The position numbers and the translations under genes are program-made. Shown in pieces: positions 4,947-55,263 of a DNA stretch of 64,000 bases. Every line of letters starts with the position of its first letter. Positions within the stretch are counted from its first letter, which is position 1. The stretch lies in the IMG/VR virus record IMGVR_UViG_3300024346_000003; one strand, given 5' to 3'. Source of the DNA: a virus. Taxonomy: Duplodnaviria; Caudoviricetes. The notes beneath the pieces are model-generated. The model saw nothing but the letters and a program-made list of their open reading frames with translations. It searched no databases and was not told where the DNA came from.

Positions 4947-5007
4947 ATATTTATGTTTTATTATAAATATTAAGATATTTGAATATATTTATTATTAAAA
5001 TATATTT

Positions 5008-7308: not shown

Positions 7309-7394
7309 CATTTACATTATGTACCATATGATATAATTGGTGTATAGTATTTAGATTTTTTCAATTATATAAATATTTATAATAAAAAAACTAT

Positions 7395-8291
7395 ATGGAT
7401 AAATTAATTGAAAATAAAATAATAGAACTTTATTTAAGCGGAATTGGGTCAACAACAATAGTTAAATTAACTAATATACCCAAACGTAAAATTTTAAATT
7501 TACTAAAAAATAAAAATATACTAAGAAATAGACATCATAGTAATGATTTTTATAATCAATTTTGGAATGAAGATGATATGTGGTGTGGTAATTGGGTTTG
7601 TGAAATGTGTAATGAAACAATTAAATTTTGTGTAAATAATAAAGTTTATTTAAATAGGAATTTAAATAAAAAGAAAATATGTAAAAGTTGTGCAAACAAA
7701 AATCAAATGGGTGAAAACAACTCATTTTATAGTAAAAAACATACTGAAAATAGTAAAAAATTAATATCGGAAAAAAAAATAGGTATTAAGACTAGTGACC
7801 ACATGAGCACCGATAAATATAGAAAAATAGTTAGTGATTTAGCCAAAGAAAGGTGGCAAAGTGGTAAAATGGAAAAAACTAGATTAAAATTAAGTCAAAT
7901 GATGAAAGACAAACACGCTAACGGTGAATTAAAATCAATAAATAGGTCAAAACCTGAATTTGAAATAATTGAATATTTAGAAAGTATTAATATAAAATGT
8001 GAACCAAGTTATAATGTGGAATCAAAAATATTTGACATATATATACCTAAATATAATTTATTAATAGAATATAATGGTGATTATTGGCATTGTAACCCTA
8101 AAAAATATGAGGCTGATTATTATAATAAGAAAAAAAATAAAACTGCTAAAGAAATATGGGAATATGATAAAAATAAACTTTACTTAGCAAAAAAATATGA
8201 TTATAATTGTATTGTAATTTGGGAAACAGATTACAAAAAAAATAAAAATATAATAAAAGAAATTTTTAATAATTATGAACAAATTAAATAA
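7395..8291 (+). CDS. Free-standing homing-type endonuclease (NUMOD3-like repeat, C-terminal Vsr/DUF559-like nuclease)
   Basis: GENNSFYSKKHTENSKKLISEK (NUMOD3-like); FDIYIPKYNLLIEYNGDYWH...IVIWETD; CxxC pairs. Confidence 0.8.
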   Translation: MDKLIENKIIELYLSGIGSTTIVKLTNIPKRKILNLLKNKNILRNRHHSNDFYNQFWNEDDMWCGNWVCEMCNETIKFCVNNKVYLNRNLNKKKICKSCANKNQMGENNSFYSKKHTENSKKLISEKKIGIKTSDHMSTDKYRKIVSDLAKERWQSGKMEKTRLKLSQMMKDKHANGELKSINRSKPEFEIIEYLESINIKCEPSYNVESKIFDIYIPKYNLLIEYNGDYWHCNPKKYEADYYNKKKNKTAKEIWEYDKNKLYLAKKYDYNCIVIWETDYKKNKNIIKEIFNNYEQIK

Positions 8292-15853: not shown

Positions 15854-16594
15854 ATGGGTGAAGTTTCAGTAATATTAAATGTATATAAAAGACCTTATAG
15901 TTTAGAAAAACAAATTGAGGCGATAAAAAAACAAACAGTAAAAGTAGATAGTTTAGATATCCACATATGGTTTAATAACCCAGAAGACGCTAAAGTCATA
16001 CAAAAACTACCAATAGATAAAAATATTAAAACTTATGTGTGTAATTATAATACTAAATTTTTCGGTAGATTTACATTACCATTATTATGTAAAACAAAAT
16101 ATGTTGCAATGTTTGATGATGATATTATACCAGGTGAAAAATGGTTAGAGAATTGTATTAATTCAATTCGAATTCAAGATGGTATATATGGTGGTAGTGG
16201 AATATTATTACATAGTGATGCTTATCTACCTCACACAAAGATTGGGTGGAACCAAGTAAATAATGATAAAATAACTGAAGTAGATTTAGTGGGACATGCC
16301 TGGTTCTTTAAACAAGAATATGCAAAATTTATGTGGTTGGAACAACCACCATCATGGGATAATGGTGAAGATATGTTTTTCTCATATGTTGCAAAAAAAA
16401 ATAATATAAAAACATTCGTCCCACCACACCCAAAAAACAATGTGAGCTTGTGGAGTAATAATCCAAAATTAGATAATAATATGGGTAGAGATGCAAATGC
16501 ACATTCATTAGCCAACCCTAACCATGTACAACAAAGGAATAATATAGTTAAAGCATTAATAAATAGAGGATGGAAACGAGTAGAATCAAAATAG
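15854..16594 (+). CDS. GT2 glycosyltransferase, paralogue B
   Basis: Closely similar to 14334-15068, sharing an identical 96-bp block. Confidence 0.85.
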   Translation: MGEVSVILNVYKRPYSLEKQIEAIKKQTVKVDSLDIHIWFNNPEDAKVIQKLPIDKNIKTYVCNYNTKFFGRFTLPLLCKTKYVAMFDDDIIPGEKWLENCINSIRIQDGIYGGSGILLHSDAYLPHTKIGWNQVNNDKITEVDLVGHAWFFKQEYAKFMWLEQPPSWDNGEDMFFSYVAKKNNIKTFVPPHPKNNVSLWSNNPKLDNNMGRDANAHSLANPNHVQQRNNIVKALINRGWKRVESK

Positions 16595-22206: not shown

Positions 22207-23201
22207 TATTATTAACTTATGGTACTAGACCAGAATGGATTAAAATCAAACCATTGGTAAATAAAATGACTGAAGAAAATATTCAGTTTAAAACATTATT
22301 TACTGGTCAACATAAGGATTTGGTGTCAAATGATGCTGATTATAATATCAACATGTCTGATATTTCTGAAAATAGATTAGATAATATAATAAATAATTGT
22401 ACCAACTTACCAAATAATATATTTGATGGTATAACACATGTTTTAGTTCAAGGTGATACTAGCTCAGCCCTCGGCTTGGCAATTACAGCATTTCATAGAC
22501 AAATAAAGATTATACATTTAGAAGCTGGTTTAAGGACTTACAATTATTCAAACCCATACCCAGAAGAAATGAATAGACAGTTAATAGGTAGGGTATCAGA
22601 CATCAACTTATGTCCAACACTTTATAATATGGATAATTTGAAAAATGAAAATGTTATGGGTGAATCATATGTTGTTGGAAATACAGGTTTGGATAATTTA
22701 CTTCAGCATAAGCATATGGTGACGTATGAAGATATCGTTTTAATCACATTACATAGACGTGAAAATCATGAAAAAATTGAATCATGGTTTAATGAAATTA
22801 ATAAATTGGCCTTAGAGTTTCCGAATATTAAATTCATATTACCCATACACCCAAACCCAAATGTTAGAAAATATAAAGATATATTAACTAATATTGAAGT
22901 GGTTGAACCATTATCACATAGTGAATTACTGGAAATTTTGATTAAATGTAAATTAGTTATAACTGATAGTGGTGGGTTACAAGAAGAGTGTTCGTTTTTG
23001 AATAAAAAATGTTTGGTTTGTAGAGAAATAACTGAACGACCTGAATCAATAGGATTCACTACTTTTATGGTGAAAAAACCAAAAGATTTAAATTTAATAT
23101 TTAATGTACATATTTATGAGTATGATGTAAATTATACGTCACCTTTTGGTGATGGTCATGCATCTGAAAAAATAATAAAAATATTTAAAGATGTTTTATA
23201 A
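22203..23201 (+). CDS. wecB: UDP-N-acetylglucosamine 2-epimerase (non-hydrolysing)
   Basis: GTRPEWIK, TGQH, VQGDT, HLEAGLRT, PEEMNR, TLHRREN, TDSGGLQEE, PFGDGHAS. Confidence 0.95.
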   Translation: MILLTYGTRPEWIKIKPLVNKMTEENIQFKTLFTGQHKDLVSNDADYNINMSDISENRLDNIINNCTNLPNNIFDGITHVLVQGDTSSALGLAITAFHRQIKIIHLEAGLRTYNYSNPYPEEMNRQLIGRVSDINLCPTLYNMDNLKNENVMGESYVVGNTGLDNLLQHKHMVTYEDIVLITLHRRENHEKIESWFNEINKLALEFPNIKFILPIHPNPNVRKYKDILTNIEVVEPLSHSELLEILIKCKLVITDSGGLQEECSFLNKKCLVCREITERPESIGFTTFMVKKPKDLNLIFNVHIYEYDVNYTSPFGDGHASEKIIKIFKDVL

Positions 23202-24166
23202 TGGAAAATATAGAAAATTCCGATATCTGCTTTTTAATACCATCATTTAATAGATACGAAAAGTTATGTAATCTATTGACTCAAATAAGTGGGTACACTG
23301 GGGTTAACACAATAATATATAATGATGCATCAACAATTGGTAATTATGCTAATATTGAAACCTTATATACAAATACTAAAGTAATTAAGGGTGAAAACAA
23401 CAATGGTAGAGCAAAATTTGATTTGACGATAAAAACGTTATTTAAAGAAGGTATGAAAACCGATTTTAAATATTTCATTTTAATTGCTGACGATATGGGA
23501 TTATGTGATGATTTTGTACATCACCTTAAACCACTATTGGATGAAAAAACAATAGTTAACTTGTTTTCATTAAGTGATGGAGGATGGGCCTGTACAGCAT
23601 ATATAGACGGTGTGTTCTCAATAAGTAAAATGGGGTTGGAAATTGTATACAATTTGTTACCAAATAAATCTAGAGATGAAAATCAGAAATCAACTGGTGT
23701 TTGGTCATCAGTTACTACTAAATTTTGTAGACAAAAAACTTATGGATATAGATTAGCATGTTTGAACTACACATTAGTTCAACACTATGGTAATGAGGAT
23801 TCTAAATTACATTTTAAGTTTAGAAAATTAAGACCAATTGTGGCTCATAATTTTTACAATGATTTTTATGGTAATGAAATAAAAATTGTTAGTTATTCGG
23901 GATTGTCGACTAAGGTAAAAAAAAAAGACATATCAAATGGTAAAAATAGTAAAAATAATAGCGTTGTTGAACCATATGTTGAACCAAATGTTGAACCAAA
24001 ACCAACACAACCAATCATTAACTCACCAATAGAATATGATAAAAGTAAGTTAAATAATATTAGGGAAGGTTTAAATAAACAAAAACAAAGTAGAATAACT
24101 AAAATTAATGATGATGTTTTTTTGGCTAAAGTTAGAAAACGGAATTTAAAGTTAGGTGGTAGGTAA
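23201..24166 (+). CDS. GT2-like glycosyltransferase with Pro/Lys-rich C-terminal tail
   Basis: FLIPSFNR..IIYNDAS..ILIADD..LVQHYG, then low-complexity tail after an A10 tract. Confidence 0.65.
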   Translation: MENIENSDICFLIPSFNRYEKLCNLLTQISGYTGVNTIIYNDASTIGNYANIETLYTNTKVIKGENNNGRAKFDLTIKTLFKEGMKTDFKYFILIADDMGLCDDFVHHLKPLLDEKTIVNLFSLSDGGWACTAYIDGVFSISKMGLEIVYNLLPNKSRDENQKSTGVWSSVTTKFCRQKTYGYRLACLNYTLVQHYGNEDSKLHFKFRKLRPIVAHNFYNDFYGNEIKIVSYSGLSTKVKKKDISNGKNSKNNSVVEPYVEPNVEPKPTQPIINSPIEYDKSKLNNIREGLNKQKQSRITKINDDVFLAKVRKRNLKLGGR

Positions 24167-33483: not shown

Positions 33484-33513
33484 TATTTCTAGATATTTAT
33501 TAATAAAAGGAAA

Positions 33514-36820: not shown

Positions 36821-36849
36821 ATTCTTTTTAATTATAAATATCTAAAAAT

Positions 36850-37680: not shown

Positions 37681-39462
37681 TTATCTTAATTCATTGATGT
37701 TAAATGTTGGTACACCATCAACTCTTACATGTCCGTAAAAACGGTTGTTCACAACTTTTTTTGCATATCTCGTCATAATTCCCTTTACTGGTGCAAAGTT
37801 GAACGGGTTATACATTGTAGGTGTAAGTTGCATTGGCACGTATGGTGCGTAGATGTAACCTGTATCTAACAATGATTTTCCTTTATGACCGATAATCATT
37901 GAGTAGAAAGGTGCATATGGGTCACGGTACACTTGGTAACGACCTGACAATGAACCTACTCTTTCAATACCCATGTTGTATTGGTCTTGCTCTGGGTTAG
38001 CATCACTTACGTGGAAGTACTCTAAATCATCCATGATTGCAGATATTTCAGAAGAAATTACGATAAAGTTAGCACCACCTCTAAGGGTTGATTTGTGAAT
38101 TTGTGCTGAAATTTGGTTAACTTTAGTAATTAAAGTTTGATTCCAGTCTTTTTGCGTGTATGGACTAGCAGCTGAAGAAGCTTTTCTCCATCCGTTATAA
38201 TCCCAACGTAATTGCCATGCAGCAGCTTTTCTTAAGTCTCTTAAGATTTCACGGTCAATTTCAGCAGCAACTTGCTCAGAAAGCATAGCTGTTAATTCTG
38301 CCTCAGCATCGATGTTGTGGAATGCACTAACATCTTGAGCTAATTCTGGAGACCATGTAGCTCTTAGTTTTCTTTCTTCTACAGAAACAACAACTTCATC
38401 CAATTTGAATGATACTTCACCCATTTCAGTTTCTAATTCTAATGAATCATAACGTCCCCAAGCGATTGAGAAATCAAGAGCCGTTGTAGTTGTACCAGTA
38501 ACACCAACATAACCATCGTAAGTTGGAGTAGTAACAGCTGGGTGAGTTAAATCTAATTCAACATACATAACACCAACAGCGTCACAGATATCACCATAAG
38601 AAACGATACCTTTACCATATTTTTGTGTTACTAATCTGAATGGAACTGAACCATTAGCAGCAACAACTGCAAAACCATCTTGGTCAAGTAATGTATTGTC
38701 AGAAACAATGATTAATGATGCTAAGAAAGCTTCAGTATCCATTTCGTTTCCGTCTGGACCTGTTAATCTACCAGCTCTAACGTCAGAGAAACCAGAGATT
38801 GCAATAATTGCATTTCTAATTGAACCATCAGTTGCAGTAGGTAGGAAAGAAAAATCAGCAACTGTATTAAAGTTACCATTAGTACCTAAAGTTTTCAATA
38901 CACCATCACCAACTGCGATAGTCAATGTACCTTTAGAGTTATCAAACATACCATCGTTGTAGAAAATATCGTACAAGTTTTTAGCTTGGTATGGAGTTAC
39001 TGTACAACCGTCAACTGGTTGAACACAACTTGGTAATTGGTCACCCATACCTGTGTGTGCAGAGTAAGTAGTACCGTAAGGTGTTGTAGCGTAATTATCA
39101 CCAGCGTTTCCGTTAGCATCAACTCTTGAAGAAGTTTGAGGTACGAAGAAAAACAATTTACCGATTGGCATGTTCATAGCTTGTACAGATACTACATCAT
39201 TAGCTAATAATTTAGAGAAAACTCTTCTTACGATTGGGAAAACTACAGTTTCGAAAGAACCTGAAGACGTAGAGTCTGTAGCTTCAGTTAAAATTGAAGA
39301 AGCTTGGTTCTCATATAACTGAGCAACGTTTTCCTTAATGTGGCCCTTAAGACCTTCCAAGAATCCTAAAGATTCCCATTTAGATTGTGTTTGTCTACGG
39401 ATTTCCTTCATGTGGTTTAATCCGATGTTTCCAACTTGTCCTGAGTTTAAAAATTGTGACAT
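37681..39462 (-). CDS. gp23: Major capsid protein (T4 gp23-like)
   Basis: KWESLGFLEGL..LYENQ, VSVQAMNMPIG, RKLRATWSPELAQD..AELTAMLSEQVAAEIDREI, GYIYAPYVP, KGIMTRYA. Confidence 0.95.
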   Translation of the reverse strand: MSQFLNSGQVGNIGLNHMKEIRRQTQSKWESLGFLEGLKGHIKENVAQLYENQASSILTEATDSTSSGSFETVVFPIVRRVFSKLLANDVVSVQAMNMPIGKLFFFVPQTSSRVDANGNAGDNYATTPYGTTYSAHTGMGDQLPSCVQPVDGCTVTPYQAKNLYDIFYNDGMFDNSKGTLTIAVGDGVLKTLGTNGNFNTVADFSFLPTATDGSIRNAIIAISGFSDVRAGRLTGPDGNEMDTEAFLASLIIVSDNTLLDQDGFAVVAANGSVPFRLVTQKYGKGIVSYGDICDAVGVMYVELDLTHPAVTTPTYDGYVGVTGTTTTALDFSIAWGRYDSLELETEMGEVSFKLDEVVVSVEERKLRATWSPELAQDVSAFHNIDAEAELTAMLSEQVAAEIDREILRDLRKAAAWQLRWDYNGWRKASSAASPYTQKDWNQTLITKVNQISAQIHKSTLRGGANFIVISSEISAIMDDLEYFHVSDANPEQDQYNMGIERVGSLSGRYQVYRDPYAPFYSMIIGHKGKSLLDTGYIYAPYVPMQLTPTMYNPFNFAPVKGIMTRYAKKVVNNRFYGHVRVDGVPTFNINELR

Positions 39463-40949: not shown

Positions 40950-41648
40950 TTAATCTAATAAAAATTTATTTAATCCATCGATTAATAAATTCTTTTCTAT
41001 TTTAACTGATTCAACGAATGGTTTAGATTCAGCCCTATCTTTAAACATCCAAGAGCCAGGTGTGCTAGGTGCTGTTACAATATCCCAACAAATTATTTCA
41101 AAATCTTCTTGAACAATGTGGTCACCATTAACTTCTCTTAATGAACCAACACCTCTAGATGATACACCAATCATAATATTATTTCTTAAAAGATTTGCAA
41201 CTTCATCACCTTTAGTTGATACAATACCAAGGTTAATATAACCTGGAGTCATTAAGATTTCCATTTTACCCATTAAGGTTTTACCTTCCCACCACGTTTC
41301 AATAATATTATGTGATACTCTATCACCAGCTATAATTGAAGACTCTGGGTGGTCTAATTCACCTATTGCTCTTCTTTCTCTAATTAATTGTTGGTACCTA
41401 TCATTTTCTCTTTTAAGAATTGGTTCTGGATATATCCTACCATTTCTATTTTTAACACTATGTTTTTGTAAGACAACATAAACAACTAGTGGTTCATTGA
41501 TAGTAGGGTGTGAGTCAGAATTCAAACTTTTCATTTCAGTTATAAAAGGTTTGTTTCTAATATCACTAGGCGAAATATAGCCAGCATCAGATTCAACCAT
41601 GAATCCAAAACCAGTCTCACCAGCTTTTAATATTTTAATGTCTGACAT
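40950..41648 (-). CDS. gp21: Prohead maturation protease (T4 gp21-like)
   Basis: NRNGRIYP, GELDHP, RVSH, GVSSRGVGS, WDIVTAPS; start likely ATG 41648. Confidence 0.93.
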   Translation of the reverse strand: MSDIKILKAGETGFGFMVESDAGYISPSDIRNKPFITEMKSLNSDSHPTINEPLVVYVVLQKHSVKNRNGRIYPEPILKRENDRYQQLIRERRAIGELDHPESSIIAGDRVSHNIIETWWEGKTLMGKMEILMTPGYINLGIVSTKGDEVANLLRNNIMIGVSSRGVGSLREVNGDHIVQEDFEIICWDIVTAPSTPGSWMFKDRAESKPFVESVKIEKNLLIDGLNKFLLD

Positions 41649-41682
41649 ATTACTTTTTATTAATAAATATGCCATATAAAAC

Positions 41683-41712
41683 AAAAAACCCCGAACTTAA
41701 TTCGGGGCTTTA
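41683..41712 (-). terminator. Intrinsic terminator
   Basis: CCCCGAA-cttaa-TTCGGGG with A6 on plus strand. Confidence 0.8.
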
Positions 41713-43686: not shown

Positions 43687-43729
43687 AATTCTTTTTTATT
43701 ATAAATATGGTAAAATAGTTTAAAAAATT

Positions 43730-45757
43730 CTATTCTTCCAACATTCTATCAATGTCTTTAATCACATTATTTATATCTTCGTTTATTCTTAAGCTTTTAT
43801 CATAAACTTTAACCCTCTCATTTAATATAACATCATCTTCCACTTTACTTATTGAATTGACTAGATTATTAAAAAGTTTAGTATTTTGTTTTTTATTTTT
43901 AGGTTTAATTTTACCATTATCATCATGCTCGATGATTAAATTACCTTTATTTTTAATAGATTCGGCTGCTGGTTCTGGTGCTTCAACTGCATCTTCAGCT
44001 GGCACTTCTTCCGCTGGCGCTTCTTCACCACCTTCAGCTGGCGCTTCTTCACCTTCAGCTGGCACTTCTTCATCACCAAAATCTAATGCACCGCCACCGA
44101 AGCCGCCGCCACCGCCTCCACCACCAGTAGGTCCACCTTCAGATTCTTCACCACCTTCACCACCTTCACCACCAGATAATGCAGCATCCATATCACCATA
44201 TATAGAATCAACCTTATCAAACATACCTGTATGCTTAATAACTTGACCAGTATTCTCAAGTTCAGCAGCAGCCGCTTTTTCTATTCTTTGCTCAAGTAAA
44301 TCTTGTTTGATTTCATCATCACTCCAACCTAATATTTCTCTATGAGCTCTTGTCATAGACATTGGGGCAAATCCATTACCAGCATCAGACACTGCATCCT
44401 TATATAATGTCATCTTCAACTGTAATTGTTCAATCTTAAGTATTTCAGCTTGAGTTGATGGGTTATTAAGTGTAAGTGTAAAATTATCTAAATCATCCTC
44501 AAAACCTAAAAGGTATAAATGTATTATTGCAATTTTATTTAATTCAGCTAACATCGCTTGTTGGATTCTATTTATTGTTCTAGAAAATCTAACGTCTTGT
44601 AATGATAAATTTTTACCTTCACCTTGAGCTTCATCAAAGTTTAAGAATTGTTTAGGAACTCTTAACGCTGTAAATAATTTTCTTTGTAAATATTGAATAT
44701 CTGCAATTTGGTCTAAGTTTGCCGCACCAGCTAATGTATCAATTGGATTTGGGGCATTCTCATCTCTAACAGGAATAAAGTAATCCTGGTCATTTGCTAA
44801 TGTATTGTATCTTAAATCCACTTGACCTGTTTGTGGGTCAACAATTGGAGTTCTTTTAAATCTATTAGCAATTTCATCAACGTATGCTGGTACATCTTCT
44901 TCATCAATATTACCAACAAATATTTTATATACTCTTCTTTCTGGTGCTCTCGTTACACGATAAACAAGCATCGCATCTTCAGATAATTGTAATTGTTTCC
45001 AGATTCTTCTCGCTTTTTCTAGCATTGAAGTACCATATGGTAATCGTCTATCATCACCTAATAATCTAAAGTGAGCAATTTGCCATGAATTAAATTCAAT
45101 ATCTCTACCTCTCCAGAAGAATTTAATCTTACCAGAAGTATCCTTTGTATCCTCAACATTGATTCTGTTTCTACCACTAATCATTGCTTCGATAATATCA
45201 CCTTCTCTTCTTTCAAGCTCAAAATTAGGTAATTGTCTAGCACTAGTGATACCATAGTTATCATCTATATTTAATAATACAAAATTATCACCGTATTTAC
45301 ATGTATTTCTAGTCCACATCGGTAATGATACGTGAATATCTAATCTATTGAAAAATAAATCTTCTAATACACCTTTAATTCTATCACTATCTGAATAAAC
45401 ATTTAATATCTTACCCTTATCATTTACGGTTGTTGATTCTTCCATAAAAATATCTAAAGATGCAGCTATTTCTGGGTAAAATTCCATACTTTCAAAGTCA
45501 GTATATGAACCAATTCTTGTTGTTTCATAATGGATTGATTGTTGAAATAATTCACCATCAACTTTTCTCCAAACATTTCTTAAATATTTGTTTTGTTGAC
45601 CCTGTAATTTAACAGCATCAAAATCTTCCTTTGATTGAGTCTTAATTAAAACATCATTATTAATTGAATATTTATTAGATTGTGTTTGAGCCTGTGGTCT
45701 AACACCCTCTGGTCCAAATATCGCATTCAATCTTTGAAATACAGTCCTTTTTGCCAT
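43730..45757 (-). CDS. gp20: Portal protein (T4 gp20-like)
   Basis: MEFYPEIAASLDI, LEKARRIWKQL, EDAMLVYRVTRAPERRVYKI, IDTLAG..IADIQY..RVP. Confidence 0.95.
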   Translation of the reverse strand: MAKRTVFQRLNAIFGPEGVRPQAQTQSNKYSINNDVLIKTQSKEDFDAVKLQGQQNKYLRNVWRKVDGELFQQSIHYETTRIGSYTDFESMEFYPEIAASLDIFMEESTTVNDKGKILNVYSDSDRIKGVLEDLFFNRLDIHVSLPMWTRNTCKYGDNFVLLNIDDNYGITSARQLPNFELERREGDIIEAMISGRNRINVEDTKDTSGKIKFFWRGRDIEFNSWQIAHFRLLGDDRRLPYGTSMLEKARRIWKQLQLSEDAMLVYRVTRAPERRVYKIFVGNIDEEDVPAYVDEIANRFKRTPIVDPQTGQVDLRYNTLANDQDYFIPVRDENAPNPIDTLAGAANLDQIADIQYLQRKLFTALRVPKQFLNFDEAQGEGKNLSLQDVRFSRTINRIQQAMLAELNKIAIIHLYLLGFEDDLDNFTLTLNNPSTQAEILKIEQLQLKMTLYKDAVSDAGNGFAPMSMTRAHREILGWSDDEIKQDLLEQRIEKAAAAELENTGQVIKHTGMFDKVDSIYGDMDAALSGGEGGEGGEESEGGPTGGGGGGGGFGGGALDFGDEEVPAEGEEAPAEGGEEAPAEEVPAEDAVEAPEPAAESIKNKGNLIIEHDDNGKIKPKNKKQNTKLFNNLVNSISKVEDDVILNERVKVYDKSLRINEDINNVIKDIDRMLEE

Positions 45758-46086: not shown

Positions 46087-47841
46087 TTATTTTAATCCAC
46101 TGAATAACCATAAATATTCACCCTTTGGGTCTTGCATATTTTTTGCAACCTGGGTGTTAAAATTTGGTTTACCAGTATTTGTTTTATTTCTTTGATTTTT
46201 AGGAACAAACCCTGTATTATATGTATCATCAGTAGCTTTATTAGAACCACCAACTTGCCAAGCTGATAATATCGCTTTAGTTTGTTTCTCAAGCTTCTTT
46301 AATTTCTTAAATGATGATTCCAATATCCATAAAGCCATACCTAATGATAGTAAACAATCATCATGATACCCTTCCATGTGGTCAGGTCTACCATTTTTAT
46401 AGATAAATGTCTTCATTTCATTTATAACACGCTTAGATTTAATCTTTATAGTGTTAGTTCTAACTGCAATCTCCAAATGTGATATTAATTGAAGTCTAAC
46501 ACCATTGATATTAAATCCAGCTACCTTTTTACCATTTTCTGTTTTAATTGAATCGTAATGTAAGTTAGGATATTTTAATTCCACAAGTTTTGATGTAGTA
46601 GTATTACCAACACCAACATTATCAACAACCAAATAAGCACTATACTTAGTACCATATACATTAAGTATTTCAGCAAATGTATCTGGTGGTACTTTACCCT
46701 GGAATTCAGCAACCTGTTCCATTGTCGTAAAATCAATGATTTGGAAACATGAAAAGTCAGCCCCATCACCACGAGCAACATCGGCTGCTAATATGTATTG
46801 ATGTTCAGCCTCAGGTTCATTCCAAATCCAAACTAAACCACTATTACCATCATAATACGTATCATCAATATATTTAGGTTTTTCAACATTCTGAGTATCA
46901 TGCATATTGATATACTCATCATCTATTACGTTACCCCCAGAACCTAGGAATGATACGTCAAGCTCTTGTGCAATTTTCTTCTTATCATTGTTCATCCCCT
47001 TACACATATCACGATACCAAGTGGAAGTAGGTTTATAACCTTTCTTAACCATTTCTTCAAATGAATCTAAAGTGAATTCAACTTCAGTAATAATTTCATC
47101 AGCTTTTAACCACTGTAAATCTTTATTATATCTAGGGTCTTGATACCATTTTAATTCAATAACATTGTAGTCATTATCACCCTTCTCAGATTGTTCGTAT
47201 GTTTTATAATACAATGGGTCATAACCATTAGGTGTTGAAATTAATATTGCACCACCCCCAGTACCTAATGATGTAATTGCCGCAGAATATAATTCAGCAC
47301 CATTTACAATAAAGGCTGCCTCATCAAAAATAAGTAATGTTGGGGTATATCCACGAAGTGCATCTGTTGATGTTGCTACCGCAATGATTTTACTACCATT
47401 AGGTAACTCAATCTCAATTTGGGAATCTTTTATAAATATAGATTTCTTTTCTTTCTCATCAGTACCATAGTAGTCTGGACCCCAAACCCATCTAGGTAAT
47501 TGTGAACAATAATCTTTAATACCTTTAGTAAATTTTTTAGCTAAATTTAATTTATTGGCAATTACAATTATAGTTTCTGGATTTTTAGAATCAGCAAATG
47601 CACATTTAATTGCACTATATGCTTGTGTTGTCGTTGAGATACCAGCCTGTCTAGGTTTTGTTACGATATTAAAACGATATTTTTGATAACAATCTACTAT
47701 ATATTGTTGTCTAATGAATAAGTTGAATGGAACAAACCCTTCTTGAGTTTTATCAAATGTTGATAAATACGTTCCTATTGCGTATTTTGGGTCAATCACA
47801 CATTTTGCATATTCATTTAATATTTCACCGCTTGTTAGCAT
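46087..47841 (-). CDS. gp17: Terminase large subunit (T4 gp17-like)
   Basis: KPRQAGIST, LIFDEAAF, ISTPNG, AADVARGDGADFS, HDDCLLS. Confidence 0.93.
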   Translation of the reverse strand: MLTSGEILNEYAKCVIDPKYAIGTYLSTFDKTQEGFVPFNLFIRQQYIVDCYQKYRFNIVTKPRQAGISTTTQAYSAIKCAFADSKNPETIIVIANKLNLAKKFTKGIKDYCSQLPRWVWGPDYYGTDEKEKKSIFIKDSQIEIELPNGSKIIAVATSTDALRGYTPTLLIFDEAAFIVNGAELYSAAITSLGTGGGAILISTPNGYDPLYYKTYEQSEKGDNDYNVIELKWYQDPRYNKDLQWLKADEIITEVEFTLDSFEEMVKKGYKPTSTWYRDMCKGMNNDKKKIAQELDVSFLGSGGNVIDDEYINMHDTQNVEKPKYIDDTYYDGNSGLVWIWNEPEAEHQYILAADVARGDGADFSCFQIIDFTTMEQVAEFQGKVPPDTFAEILNVYGTKYSAYLVVDNVGVGNTTTSKLVELKYPNLHYDSIKTENGKKVAGFNINGVRLQLISHLEIAVRTNTIKIKSKRVINEMKTFIYKNGRPDHMEGYHDDCLLSLGMALWILESSFKKLKKLEKQTKAILSAWQVGGSNKATDDTYNTGFVPKNQRNKTNTGKPNFNTQVAKNMQDPKGEYLWLFSGLK

Positions 47842-47879
47842 AGGTTTTTATTAATAAATATGTGAAAACACGCAAAAAC

Positions 47880-49499: not shown

Positions 49500-49898
49500 T
49501 TACTTAACTTTTTTTTCTTTGTTATATTCTAAAACTAAATCACGTTCATAAAGTTTATCATTAACTTCAGCTATGTCTAAACCAAATGAGAACCAAAGTC
49601 TAGATTCTGGATATTCTTCATAACCATCAATATCTTCCCAAGCCAATGCAACAATTTTATCAACCGCATCCCAAACAGCAAACGTATCACTATCTTGAAC
49701 TAAATTGAATTTTATATCGGTACTTAATTTACCAACTGATTTAACAAATTCAGAATGTGGTGGCTCTGGTCTACCAGAAGCTGGAACCGCATCCCAATTA
49801 TCACCATCAACATTATCAATATCAGATGAGAAGAGAAATTCATAAATGAAATCACCTTCCCAACCTTTACCAACTTTATTTATGTAAATTAATTTCAT
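49500..49898 (-). CDS. Hypothetical protein
   Basis: 132 aa in late operon. Confidence 0.75.
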   Translation of the reverse strand: MKLIYINKVGKGWEGDFIYEFLFSSDIDNVDGDNWDAVPASGRPEPPHSEFVKSVGKLSTDIKFNLVQDSDTFAVWDAVDKIVALAWEDIDGYEEYPESRLWFSFGLDIAEVNDKLYERDLVLEYNKEKKVK

Positions 49899-51706
49899 TA
49901 ATAGTCCATTTTAGGTTTTGGTGCATGTGCTGGCTCAGCTTCCCAAATTCTTTTTCTTCTTGGTGAAGGTTGTGCTGGTTTTGTTTCTGGAATTACCACA
50001 GGTTCTTTAACTGGGTTATTCAATGTAATAGAATCTAACATATCTTGCATTTCGTTTAATTTTTCAATTATAACATCGTTATTTGCAAATATACTATTTT
50101 TTTTCAAATTATCCAAAGATTCACTTATTTTAACACATTTATCTTTACCATTTTCAGTACCAGCGTACTTATAACCTTTCCAACATGCTTTACCATCAAC
50201 ACCTTTTATTTTATCTTCACCAACTATTTTAGATACTGGTGTTCTAGACCACATTTTACATGACCAATATTTAGGTGTAGTTCTATCTTTTGCTTGAGCA
50301 CATTTGTGTCTAGCTCTGAATGATTTTCTTCTTTTTGGGTCATCTCTTTTAATTTCCATATTTGGGTCACCAAAATTAACTTTAACCACATTACCTTTTT
50401 TATTTTTAACGTAAACTTTAAATTTCTTAACATCACCCTTTGTCGGTTTACCTAATGTAACTTTTCTACCTTGGTATTCAGCTTCATTAATCCCATTCCC
50501 AACAAATAATTGCGCAATATCACTTTCTGGCGATTCAACTGAACCATGATTATCTTCATATCCAGCTTCAGTATCACCGTCATAACCAAGTTGACCAGTT
50601 AAAAAATGATAAACTTCTTCAATATCATCTTTTGAAGTTGCTGCTAGATTTGAAATCCATTCACCATGGTTTAAAATCTCATTATCAACCATAAACACAT
50701 CCATATTTAATATTTCATGTGTTGCATGTTTTATCGTTTTCAAATTTTGAAATAACATATAATTATTAGATTCAGACTCTTCAGTCATTCTTTCTTGACC
50801 TTCTAAATAATGGTAAATGTGCTCAATATCATGAGTTGCTGTTGCAACATGGTCTAAAGCCCAACCATGACCATTATCTAATAAAGCACTAACTTCATTC
50901 ATATCCATACTCAATAATTCACAAGCATCTTCATATATTGAATAGATATCATTAAAAAACATTCCATTTTTTAATTCTTCACCACCTTGATTATCGTTAT
51001 TTTCATGTACTTCAAAATCATCACCAAATGCGACAACATTATCACTTAATAAATCATCAGACTCCCACATTTGATTTTCAGCACCTGGTGCAAATCTAGC
51101 ATCATTTGCAAAATATGATTTGTCAGCATTACCAGGTTGAAAACCTAAATCACCAGCTTCATCTAAAGGCTCTTCAGTTTCAGAATCAACATCTACTTCA
51201 TCATCACCCATATTTGCTTCTTCATCATCACCAGTATCAACATTAACATCAACATTAACATCTTTACCTTCATCACCAGAAGATTTAATTTTTTTGATTA
51301 TATCTTTTTGGTCTTCTTCATCCATTTCAGCAGTATGAGTCGCTGAAATTACAGAATTAATTGCAAATTTTTCTAAATCAAAATCAGGTTGACCTTTATC
51401 TTCACTATATTTTCTAAGTGTAGTACCTAATTTACCAGCAAGTTGCTGTATATATTTTTCTGGGTCCTCAGTTTCATCAGCTTCAATACCAGCATCGAAA
51501 GGTGTATCATCAAATGGTTTATCATCACCAGGTGCAGCTTCAGGTACCTCAGCATCCAAACCCATATCAGCTTCCTCACCACCAGTTACAGGAGGTGTAG
51601 AAACGTCCAAAGCTGGCGTACTAGGTGCAGCCAGCTTTAGTTTATATTTTACTTCTTCTTCTAGATTATACCCTTCCTCTTCATCAGCGAAAAGACCAGT
51701 AGACAT
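49898..51706 (-). CDS. Large acidic modular protein, probably internal head protein; possibly C-terminal part of a -1 frameshift fusion
   Basis: Many LxE/INE sites, basic module EAEYQGRKV..YWSC, repeated HGxW..A...DIExxYHxL; frame open upstream through A10 tract. Confidence 0.65.
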   Translation of the reverse strand: MSTGLFADEEEGYNLEEEVKYKLKLAAPSTPALDVSTPPVTGGEEADMGLDAEVPEAAPGDDKPFDDTPFDAGIEADETEDPEKYIQQLAGKLGTTLRKYSEDKGQPDFDLEKFAINSVISATHTAEMDEEDQKDIIKKIKSSGDEGKDVNVDVNVDTGDDEEANMGDDEVDVDSETEEPLDEAGDLGFQPGNADKSYFANDARFAPGAENQMWESDDLLSDNVVAFGDDFEVHENNDNQGGEELKNGMFFNDIYSIYEDACELLSMDMNEVSALLDNGHGWALDHVATATHDIEHIYHYLEGQERMTEESESNNYMLFQNLKTIKHATHEILNMDVFMVDNEILNHGEWISNLAATSKDDIEEVYHFLTGQLGYDGDTEAGYEDNHGSVESPESDIAQLFVGNGINEAEYQGRKVTLGKPTKGDVKKFKVYVKNKKGNVVKVNFGDPNMEIKRDDPKRRKSFRARHKCAQAKDRTTPKYWSCKMWSRTPVSKIVGEDKIKGVDGKACWKGYKYAGTENGKDKCVKISESLDNLKKNSIFANNDVIIEKLNEMQDMLDSITLNNPVKEPVVIPETKPAQPSPRRKRIWEAEPAHAPKPKMDY

Positions 51707-51726
51707 CCCATCTACTTTAGTTTCAA

Positions 51727-52512
51727 TTAAGCTTTTTTTTTTAAAGTATTTAACAATGCTTCTTTTTCAGATTCAGTTAATGAATTTAAAATACCACTTA
51801 CTTTATCAGAAGTATCTTCACCAATAATTGAATCCATTCTAGCCATTGCAGTTTCAATACTAAAACCTTTTTTAGATTCAGGTATATTTATTTCTTTTGG
51901 TGGGTTAGGTAGTTGATTAGGGTCATCTTCATTTCCCATAGTGTAATCAACATCATCTAACATTTCATCGATAGCCATTTCATTTTCAGATAATTTAACA
52001 GCTTCAAATTCATCATCAGCATCTTTGTTAGCAAGATTATCACCAAATTGACCTTCTTCCTTACCTTCTTTAGAATCGTAAGATAATTTTTCACCAGATT
52101 TATCTAAAATATCTTTAGATGCATCATTTTCAGCTAACAAATTGTCATCTACAAATGCATTGTAGCTACTAATTTTACCATGAGCTTCATTTAAACTCAT
52201 TAATTTTAAATTCAAATGTTTAATAGCTTTTGCGTATGATGGGTATACTTCAGATGTCTTATTCATCAAACCACCAATGTAATTGAAATCTTCAGTTACT
52301 AAATTTGATTGTTTGTCAGTTATTTTAATAAAATAATTGTGACCTTCTCTAACCACACCATAAACCTTACCATCAGGTCCTAATTTAGTCAATTCAACAA
52401 CAGAATTTTTAACGTCTTCATTTAATTGGGATTGACCCATTAATTCTCGCATTCTGTTAAGCTTATCATTACCTTTTAACCCTGTAGGTTTAACTATAAA
52501 TGGATTCTTCAT
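51727..52512 (-). CDS. Hypothetical late protein ending in A10 slippery tract
   Basis: 261 aa ending TTA AAA AAA AAA GCT TAA. Confidence 0.75.
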   Translation of the reverse strand: MKNPFIVKPTGLKGNDKLNRMRELMGQSQLNEDVKNSVVELTKLGPDGKVYGVVREGHNYFIKITDKQSNLVTEDFNYIGGLMNKTSEVYPSYAKAIKHLNLKLMSLNEAHGKISSYNAFVDDNLLAENDASKDILDKSGEKLSYDSKEGKEEGQFGDNLANKDADDEFEAVKLSENEMAIDEMLDDVDYTMGNEDDPNQLPNPPKEINIPESKKGFSIETAMARMDSIIGEDTSDKVSGILNSLTESEKEALLNTLKKKA

Positions 52513-52891: not shown

Positions 52892-53302
52892 TTATTTTGA
52901 TTGACTGTCGGCAATTAACTTATTAATTCTATTTCTACCTTTCTCTCCGATTGGTATTGGATTACCTTCTTCATCAATTTGTACAAATTTTATATGTGTT
53001 TTTAAAACTAAAACTTGTTTCCCAGTATAAACATTATGGGCCCTGGCTTCCATGTATAACGTTACAGATGAATTACCAACTTGCGTTGGGTAACCATAGA
53101 TTTTAAGTAACTGACTTTCTCTAGCTGGCTTCTCAAAGATACATTTATCAATTGATACAGTCACCATTCTAGGTGTATCACACAATTGCATTGAATATGC
53201 AGCAGCTGCCGCATCAATCCAAGCCAATAGTTTACCACCGAACAAATTACCATGGAAACCTAAGTCTGATTTTTTAATTGGGTGTTGGTTTAATTGTTCC
53301 AT
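52892..53302 (-). CDS. Acyl-CoA thioesterase (hotdog, YciA-like)
   Basis: DLGFHGNLFGGKLLAWIDAAA..MVTVSID..GNSSVTL..FVQIDEEGNP. Confidence 0.9.
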   Translation of the reverse strand: MEQLNQHPIKKSDLGFHGNLFGGKLLAWIDAAAAAYSMQLCDTPRMVTVSIDKCIFEKPARESQLLKIYGYPTQVGNSSVTLYMEARAHNVYTGKQVLVLKTHIKFVQIDEEGNPIPIGEKGRNRINKLIADSQSK

Positions 53303-54009: not shown

Positions 54010-55263
54010 TTAATTGCTTAGTGGTGCTTTAATTGTTGGGTGTGATTGGTAGTCTTTTAAGATAAATCCATCTAACTCGTAATTATCAATATATGTTTCT
54101 TTTTCATATTTGAAAAATAATTTTGGTAGTGTATATGGTTCTCTTGTTCGTGTTGGTATATTCCATTGGTCAATTTCAGAATGCGATAATGTACTACTGT
54201 CTCCACCGTTATAAATTTGATTAAACATTTCTTGATTAACCATCGCTCTTCGTTCATCTAAAGTTAACTCTCTACCAATCTGTTCCTTTGCTTGTTCAAC
54301 ATGATTCAAATACAAATGTGTATCACCCAAGTTACCAATCAATTCATCAGGAACCATATTGACTTCCTTAGCAATGATTTCTAATAACAAACCATAAGAT
54401 GCAATATTGAATGGTAAACCTAAGAATGTATCTACTGAACGTTGATTCCACATTAAAGAGATTGCTCGTTTAGGAATGTTAAATGAGTTTAGTTTTTTAT
54501 GACCTTCATAACTTTCTACATAATCAATCTCCCACATTCCTCGTTTGCCTGTTTCATTTTGATTTTGTTGATACCATAGTTCAATACGTTCTTCCAAACT
54601 CAACACTCTTGTAAAAAACTGAAAATCTGTATGACAAGGGGGTAATACCATTTCATTTAATTCACCAACATTCCAAGCAGAAACTCTATTGCGTCTGGAG
54701 TCTGGGTCTGTTTTAAGTAAATTGATTGCGTTTTGTATTTGGTCTGTTCCTTTAATACCGTAACCTCTTTCTTCAGTTTGAGGCTCATAACCCCAATTTC
54801 TCCATTGTTTACCATACACTGGACCTAATTCACCCCACTTGTTAGCAAACTCATCATTAGTTTTTATTTTATTAATAAATTCTTCTTGTGTTAATAATCT
54901 TGAAGTTGCATTATAAATAGGTCCTTCTACAATAACTATATCTTTATTAATTTCTAAATTAAGATTTATGTTTTGATTTTTGTTAATAAAATTTTTATAC
55001 GCATCACCATCCCAAATGTGACAATTATTATCAATAAGATATTTAATGTTTGTATCACCACGTAAAAACCACAACAATTCTGTTACAATTCCTTTGAAAT
55101 ACATCTTTTTTGATGTAATCAGTGGAAAACCATCTGACATCTTGTGTCTGATTTGCCTTCCGAATACAGATATCGTACCTGTTCCAGTACGGTCTTGCTT
55201 GGTTACTCCGTTATCTAGGATATCTTGGAGTAGGTCTGTGTATTGTTTATCTAGTTTGTTCAT
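54010..55263 (-). CDS. thyA: Thymidylate synthase with insertions
   Basis: DRTGTGT, ELLWFLRG, LGPVYGKQWR, VSAWNV, LPPCH, QRSVDTFLGLPFNIASY, DTHLYLNH. Confidence 0.97.
   Translation of the reverse strand: MNKLDKQYTDLLQDILDNGVTKQDRTGTGTISVFGRQIRHKMSDGFPLITSKKMYFKGIVTELLWFLRGDTNIKYLIDNNCHIWDGDAYKNFINKNQNINLNLEINKDIVIVEGPIYNATSRLLTQEEFINKIKTNDEFANKWGELGPVYGKQWRNWGYEPQTEERGYGIKGTDQIQNAINLLKTDPDSRRNRVSAWNVGELNEMVLPPCHTDFQFFTRVLSLEERIELWYQQNQNETGKRGMWEIDYVESYEGHKKLNSFNIPKRAISLMWNQRSVDTFLGLPFNIASYGLLLEIIAKEVNMVPDELIGNLGDTHLYLNHVEQAKEQIGRELTLDERRAMVNQEMFNQIYNGGDSSTLSHSEIDQWNIPTRTREPYTLPKLFFKYEKETYIDNYELDGFILKDYQSHPTIKAPLSN

Follow-up and report, generated by a model that had tools for sequence, protein, structure and literature searches.

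Do the two adjacent open reading frames (ORFs) named ORF1 and ORF2 belong to two genes, or to a single gene whose reading frame is switched during expression? They lie on the minus strand of a 64,000-nucleotide (nt) stretch of viral DNA, IMG/VR record IMGVR_UViG_3300024346_000003, which is hereafter called the window; its source is an uncultured T4-like jumbo phage and its G+C content is 29.6%. ORF1 (P0001; 51727..52512) codes for 261 amino acids (aa) and is followed by ORF2 (P0002; 49898..51706), which codes for 602 aa. The original prediction, made from the window sequence alone, held that the pair yields a short protein and a fusion of ~870 aa by recoding at a run of adenines, and every comparative test that was run supports this proposal. 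Judging from these comparisons, recoding of some kind at the junction is very probable. The prediction was entitled as a -1 ribosomal shift; recoding at the run stands, but the mechanism leans to slippage of the RNA polymerase, the favoured reading with a probability of roughly 0.6.

The 3' end of ORF1 reads ACT TTA AAA AAA AAA GCT TAA, with the stop codon at 51729-51727. It holds a putative slippery site of ten uninterrupted adenines (A10; 51733..51742, T10 on the plus strand) within the context T-A10-G, read as TTA AAA AAA AAA GCT TAA in the zero frame, where translation stops two codons past the run. The last stop codon of the -1 frame is a TGA at 51769-51767, and from 51766 this frame is open into ORF2, reading F-KKK-S-L-I-E-T-K-V-D-G-M. 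The shift must fall within the 40 nt of overlap (51727..51766), because both frames are open there. The -1-frame bridge that separates the run from ORF2 (51707..51733; AGC TTA ATT GAA ACT AAA GTA GAT GGG, coding for S-L-I-E-T-K-V-D-G) takes the final A of the run (51733) as its first base and includes an L-I-E motif. ORF1 would thus be the short isoform and ORF2 the C-terminal part of a long isoform. The whole recoded gene would span 49898..52512 and give, by way of either an mRNA with eleven A's (A11) or a -1 shift of the ribosome on the run, a fusion with an expected length of 260 + 9 + 602 = 871 aa. The ORF ends, the A10 run and the -1 frame open from 51766 that the original prediction described are found in the minus-strand sequence as it gave them.

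Comparison with homologous loci carries the case. Using ORF1 and ORF2 as queries, 84 IMG/VR loci were fetched, among which 49 junctions are non-identical; in this set the ORF2 aa identity is 40-78% and ORF1 has a length of 182-616 aa. In 49/49 unique junctions the frame of the ORF2 homologue is -1 with respect to that of ORF1, and all 49 feature an uninterrupted A-run within an overlap of 13-64 nt, so that the A-tract and the open -1 bridge of the window are both kept in every unique locus. The run has a minimum length of 9 and a mode of 10 (A10 in 43 junctions, A9 in 3, A11 in 2 and A12 in 1), is preceded by T in 45/49 and followed by G in 46/49, and the zero-frame stop is found 1-8 codons past it. 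Information content is 0.1-0.6 bit a few nt upstream of the run, and some positions downstream reach ~1 bit. A -1-frame TAA extends into the start of the run in five loci, so that this frame becomes open only within it, and the overlap shrinks to only 13 nt in two of them; the shift in these loci can therefore occur only in or just after the run.

Homopolymers are error-prone, and the split between the two ORFs might reflect an error of sequencing or assembly in a single 871-aa gene, decay into a pseudogene, or phase variation at the DNA level caused by slipped replication. One fused relative, L087, was indeed assembled from long reads at only 6x, and its frame may be an error. Yet the A10/-1 state recurs in the 49 unique junctions, which come from many independent metagenomes, mostly short-read, and also in 19 further DNA runs labelled lake-water metagenome, each with at least half of the window's sampled words. 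Variants with A9, A11 or A12 retain the -1 relation instead of toggling, and both ORFs are under clear purifying selection. An artefact or DNA-level event is thus highly improbable; sequencing error and phase variation were rejected on account of the recurrence in many loci with the -1 relation kept.

The A10 run of this one genome, taken alone, is not beyond chance: the window has seven A/T runs of at least 9, three of which are within ordinary ORFs. Sporadic A runs inside the ORF1 and ORF2 homologues provide a control for non-programmed runs. Other A runs of at least 9 in these genes amount to ten in 127 kb (~one per 12.7 kb), each occurring in only one or two loci. By its conservation across homologues, the junction run is far beyond chance.

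A second alternative is that ORF2 is an independent gene translated from its own ATG (51706), the A10 run being simply the coding sequence of a Lys-rich C-terminus in an AT-rich genome. The ATG is indeed positioned 26 nt past the run, gene callers and database labels treat the copies of the two ORFs as separate ('hypothetical' and 'CxxC motif-containing protein'), and A/T runs of at least 9 are not rare in this genome. The leader of this ATG (...gtagatggg) is, however, G-rich, in contrast to A/T-rich leaders at almost every one of the other 59 listed starts; the original prediction had already pointed out this atypical context. Most relatives have no ATG near the junction. Their first -1-frame ATG is found up to 464 nt downstream, an invariant K-Y-K-L-K motif lies upstream of it, and gene callers choose arbitrary ATG, GTG or TTG codons inside conserved ORF2 sequence, with conserved residues upstream of every candidate start. 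Four loci of the sub-clade to which the window belongs (L034, L061, L050 and L064) even have another residue in place of the Met in ...DG-M-STGLF. In seven unique loci that keep the ATG, variation over the nine codons of the bridge is distributed as 6/7/15 at -1-frame codon positions 1/2/3 and includes the synonymous pairs GAA/GAG, AAA/AAG and GAT/GAC and the set GGT/GGA/GGG, a pattern which shows that the bridge is evidently under selection in the -1 frame. With the -1 relation and the run universal, and with natural fusions in existence (see below), the presence of two independent genes is very unlikely. A different kind of split is found further downstream in six loci (L043, L047, L055, L067, L069 and L070), where the ORF2 homologue is divided into two ordinary genes. 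These loci serve as an internal control: the distal piece starts at an ATG of its own, its frame relation varies, and the join lacks any A-run of at least 9; the ORF2 modules can therefore work as separate proteins.

The wider family was explored with a profile of the ORF1 N-terminal domain (alignment A1; 67% mean column identity and 31 invariant positions) against 1.84 billion representatives (E <= 0.001). It matches 1009 clusters at 50% identity, and the domain is N-terminal in nearly all of them. The best 150 of the 1009 clusters, whose representatives are at most 50% identical to each other, were examined: KKK is found within the last ten residues in 103/150, another 30/150 are single-ORF fusions carrying ORF2 domains, 2 have KK only, and the other 15 have different ends, in most cases at the edge of a contig. 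The natural fusions show that the N-terminal domain and the ORF2 modules belong to one protein. Most of them (21/30) are distant members in which the N-terminal domain leads by a short linker directly into the KYKLK motif and the junction lacks KKK. DNA was retrieved for two of them, L090 and L091, and both are plain ORFs with A7 as their longest A-run. Such homologues without a tract support recoding and do not refute it, because they are single-ORF fusions.

The other nine fusions retain KKK at the junction, and DNA was fetched for six. Four of these, L085 (2242-2251), L086 (1886-1895), L088 (2730-2739) and L089 (1153-1162), form one clade from different sources and have an uninterrupted A10 in frame with ORF2; so does L095 (2224-2233), of the same clade. 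An in-frame A10 is found also in L094 (2113-2122), which is outside that clade and has a different junction sequence; the sixth is L087, with its doubtful frame. The frame that results from loss of one A stops 1-2 codons past the run in L085, L086, L088, L089 and L094 (KKKV*, KKKI* or KKKVK*), so that the ends produced resemble the short form of the -1-type loci. The template of the in-frame relatives encodes the long form, the inverse of the window arrangement.

A second T-A10-G junction of the -1 type is present within the ORF2 homologue of L094 (2934-2952; ...VFKHLSL-KKK-DK*). It has the same phase, a stop two codons on, and a -1 frame that continues for ~180 aa into the DUF5754-like module, a part of ORF2 everywhere else. 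The homologous second site of L087 (3300-3312), found in the low-coverage long-read assembly, has an A9 and a +1 relation and would therefore also need an A11 mRNA. The poly-A device thus seems, from these two loci, to be used twice in this family. Four states of the gene occur: a fusion lacking any run, an in-frame run, a -1 run, and two serial runs (L094).

How would the two products be made? In the favoured mechanism ORF1 and ORF2 would be one recoded late gene, standard decoding of the A10 template giving the 261-aa short form. The host RNA polymerase, steered by phage late factors, would slip on the T10 template, where the 9-10 bp RNA:DNA hybrid would be wholly rA:dT and could realign without mismatch, leading to a mixed mRNA population. 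A11 transcripts, with one extra A, would be read KKK-S-LIETKVDG-M... to yield the 871-aa fusion, and A9 or A12 transcripts would end within a few codons (KKKLN*). The bacterial RNA polymerase hybrid is 9-10 bp long and slippage is efficient at 9 A/T (PMC5009743). Reporter efficiencies are 10% for 7 A's, 40% for 9 A's and 63% for 11 A's (PMC3711429), and by analogy with the data for 9-11 A's the slippage ratio at the junction might amount to tens of percent. Through their shared N-terminal part, the short and the long product could work within a single assembly.

Slipping on A-runs is known for the polymerase as well as for the ribosome (PMC3711429, PMC5009743), and programmed -1 ribosomal frameshifting, by slipping on A-AAA-AAA or T-TTA-AAA or by sliding along poly-A with an unchanged mRNA, is a possible but clearly less likely origin of the fusion. 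The zero frame has both T-TTA-AAA and A-AAA-AAA, which are valid X-XXY-YYZ heptamers; the -1 relation kept in all 49 loci and the close zero-frame stop are also as expected, and a short zero-frame product accompanied by a long -1 product is the classic layout of phage G/GT and of IS3 (PMC5009743). However, a run of 7 would be enough for a ribosomal heptamer, yet none below 9 occurs, and the classical A-AAA-AAG is in the zero frame at one locus only (L019). A conserved RNA stimulator, hairpin or pseudoknot, was not found downstream across the homologous junctions, where the folds have a mean z of -1.2, reach only -0.3 kcal/mol in some loci and feature hairpins at variable positions. This lowers the likelihood of a ribosomal frameshift, though a stimulator is not obligatory. 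Neither is Shine-Dalgarno use seen at the gene starts of the window genome. A ribosomal shift in the in-frame A10 clade would yield only odd truncated -1 products, while the arrangement of this clade is the Thermus dnaX layout, which is explained by insertions and deletions in mRNA; because slippage runs in both directions, it explains the in-frame and the -1 arrangements alike. These observations favour the polymerase. A minor contribution of ribosomal slipping on A-AAA-AAA would be compatible with polymerase slippage and the two may act together.

Several points weigh against polymerase slippage. No contig of two metatranscriptomes spans the run: a search of sequencing runs gave no RNA run that shares more than 0.07 of the window stretch, and contigs of the runs X25, X26 and X20 (RNA or possibly RNA) and X2 (DNA) carry pieces of relatives on ORF1 and ORF2, none of them across 51710-51817. 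The A-AAA-AAA and T-TTA-AAA sequences are legitimate -1 heptamers. In-frame A9 or A10 runs are present in three ordinary ORFs of the window (23917-23926, 7771-7779 and 16393-16401) and would slip too, which implies that the phage tolerates slippage or that its efficiency is lower than assumed. Lys codons in the ORF1 and ORF2 genes are AAA in 78% of cases, and KKK alone therefore yields A9 about half the time; for this reason the case is built on the conservation of the run and not on the run itself. Finally, the 49 junctions do not represent 49 independent events, because the loci are phylogenetically related.

The in-frame A10 at 23917-23926 (plus strand) has the same T-A10-G flanks and codon phase as the junction run. 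It is found in ORF 23201-24166, whose product would be shortened to 247 aa from 321 by reading of the -1 frame; this ORF has no relatives in IMG/VR. The A9 runs at 7771-7779 and 16393-16401 lie inside two other ORFs. All three may be further slippage sites or may be merely tolerated.

Recoding on poly-A is already known from dnaX, insertion sequence (IS) elements, magnesium chelatase and Shigella type III secretion genes. The dnaX gene of Thermus thermophilus, which codes for tau and gamma, offers a close parallel: a homopolymer of 9-10 leads to a mixed mRNA population, the products share their N-terminus, and the alternative frames soon meet stops (PMC5009743); 10 A's have been reported for dnaX genes (PMC3711429). 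The layout of Thermus dnaX, with slippage at 9 A/T, is the same as in L085, L086, L088 and L089 and at the first run of L094, whereas in the window and most relatives the template codes for the short form and slippage would give the long one. The proteins are unrelated, dnaX being a replication gene and not a phage late gene. In the magnesium chelatase and IS clusters (Antonov et al. 2013, PMC3711429) runs of A7-A11 are positioned at ORF junctions, efficiency rises with length and naturally fused homologues exist; unlike the family described here, these are cellular or IS genes and their runs go down to 7, never below 9 here. Slippage on A/T runs in Shigella spa13, mxiE and spa33 sets the ratio of extended to truncated components of a large machine (PMC5009743), but this machine is a bacterial type III secretion system made of unrelated proteins.

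Frameshift-extended isoforms are likewise already known in phage tails. The lambda gpG/gpGT pair, made by -1 ribosomal frameshifting, is similar in being a pair from the phage morphogenetic region, with a short zero-frame product and a rarer C-terminally extended -1 fusion, and in the conservation of this arrangement over great sequence divergence. It differs in its 7-nt heptamer, compared to a run of at least 9 here, in its much smaller products, and in its place between the tail tube and tape measure genes, while the ORF1/ORF2 pair is upstream of the terminase and portal genes. A G/GT-like tail assembly chaperone was considered and rejected as the identity of the pair, on grounds of the wrong position and of no homology to chaperone families; neither ORF matches a chaperone family in Pfam or PHROG.

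In ORF1 a variable, acidic linker connects the conserved N-terminal domain (aa 1-130) to a C-terminal helix, also conserved, whose last residues are LKKKA*. ORF1 has no Pfam match, and it gave no tblastn match among 50,697 phage records. An AlphaFold model of the N-terminal domain (pLDDT 65) found nothing at E <= 0.001 in the PDB with Foldseek, and in the ESM Atlas it returned only its own family; the Atlas search gave unnamed viral clusters only. Near-identical strains (P0275; window 51880 region) carry a 38-aa insertion in the linker (…NPWAICTASVGRED.EKFEKCV…), which brings ORF1 to 299 aa instead of 261 and leaves the junction unchanged.

ORF2 is a chain of small conserved modules with acidic low-complexity spacers between them. 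They comprise the KYKLK motif, a PFD..FDAG motif with a helical domain, two ~60-aa helical repeats, a basic Cys-containing module, similar to phrog_7595 and DUF5754, and a conserved C-terminal P..RR.K..PKA motif. The model of aa 322-510 (pLDDT 51) was too poor for structure search. Pfam matches of ORF2 are all below threshold, DUF5754 scoring 14.5 bits under its cutoff of 27.4, and the only PHROG found with ORF1 or ORF2 is phrog_7595, a family without known function, which matches ORF2 aa 407-486 with E = 2e-12. This module (50250-50480) has ~72% nt identity to small stand-alone genes of the Pelagibacter phages HTVC111P, Aegir and Kolga as well as to ORF21 of a Nitrosopumilaceae spindle-shaped virus. 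The stand-alone phrog_7595 gene codes for ~80-93 aa in Pelagibacter phages (L092:4998-5279 and L093:3955-4194 are stand-alone genes for the Cys module), and in the two examples examined it is located upstream of the terminase gene (HTVC111P) or of a head-morphogenesis gene (Kolga). Small Cys-containing modules similar to the insertion in the ORF1 linker (CWKGY…, GLWDNI…PAKPGD) are present in some ORF2 homologues and absent from others.

The ORF1/ORF2 pair is preceded by thyA (54010-55263) and a gene for a thioesterase-fold protein (52892-53302). It is followed by three small ORFs without assigned function and then by genes coding for the large terminase TerL (46087-47841), a T4-type portal (43730-45757), the head-maturation protease (40950-41684) and a gp23-like major capsid protein (37681-39462). 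The terminase has only ~31% identity to that of any isolate. The order thyA, recoded gene, three small ORFs and terminase is kept in relatives, and identical copies of the ORF1 and ORF2 proteins are encoded on contigs of up to 303,820 bp. The motif ATATTTATWAWWAAA has 15 copies in the window at no more than 1 mismatch, compared to 3.7 expected (284-298, 4956-4970, 4985-4999, 7373-7387, 33493-33507, 36827-36841, 41656-41670, 43694-43708, 47847-47861 and others). It is found mostly 8-12 nt ahead of the start codons of structural genes, a position pointing to a promoter or leader element of late genes. One copy falls within the listed TTG-started ORF of the protease, whose gene therefore probably starts at a downstream ATG. 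The conserved synteny and the nearby late-type leader motifs fit a late, morphogenesis-linked role of the recoded gene.

Most loci have an [LIV]-x-E tripeptide after the run. In the window it is the L-I-E of the bridge, to which the original prediction had drawn attention as resembling other putative protease sites, and a head-maturation protease is encoded in the window. The tripeptide corresponds to the cleavage motif of T4 gp21, and it is only a lead for cleavage, because the motif is short and the protein is rich in Glu. Cleavage here is a guess, and so is the place among internal head components that the original prediction suggested for the products. A tentative and rather speculative scheme is that slippage of the RNA polymerase on A10 lets evolution tune the isoform ratio of a morphogenesis-linked protein in T4-like and jumbo phages that form a very large uncultured group, with the stoichiometry set at transcription. 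The short form, as scaffold or chaperone, would recruit a small number of copies of the long form, acidic and bearing the Cys module, to the prohead or packaging complex, and a gp21-like protease might cut the [LIV]-x-E at the junction.

The literature searched holds no description of this family or of its recoding site, and no report of programmed transcriptional slippage in a late gene of a tailed phage. The site is unannotated in all sources; the kind of mechanism is known, and the gene family is new and very widespread. What makes the family distinctive is its breadth, the occurrence side by side of fusions, in-frame runs and -1 runs, and a probable transcriptional case in a tailed-phage late gene. 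Gene callers split the gene into two hypothetical proteins, and the long isoform is therefore absent from every protein catalogue.

The family comprises about 1000 or more clusters at 50% identity and is common in lake and marine viromes. Its members without a run, with an in-frame run, with a -1 run and with two runs provide a natural series for the evolution of isoform ratios set by slippage, and the T-A10-G motif beside a nearby stop is worth scanning for in AT-rich phage genomes. If RNA data confirm slippage, the ORF1/ORF2 gene would be a clear case of programmed slippage in a tailed-phage late gene.

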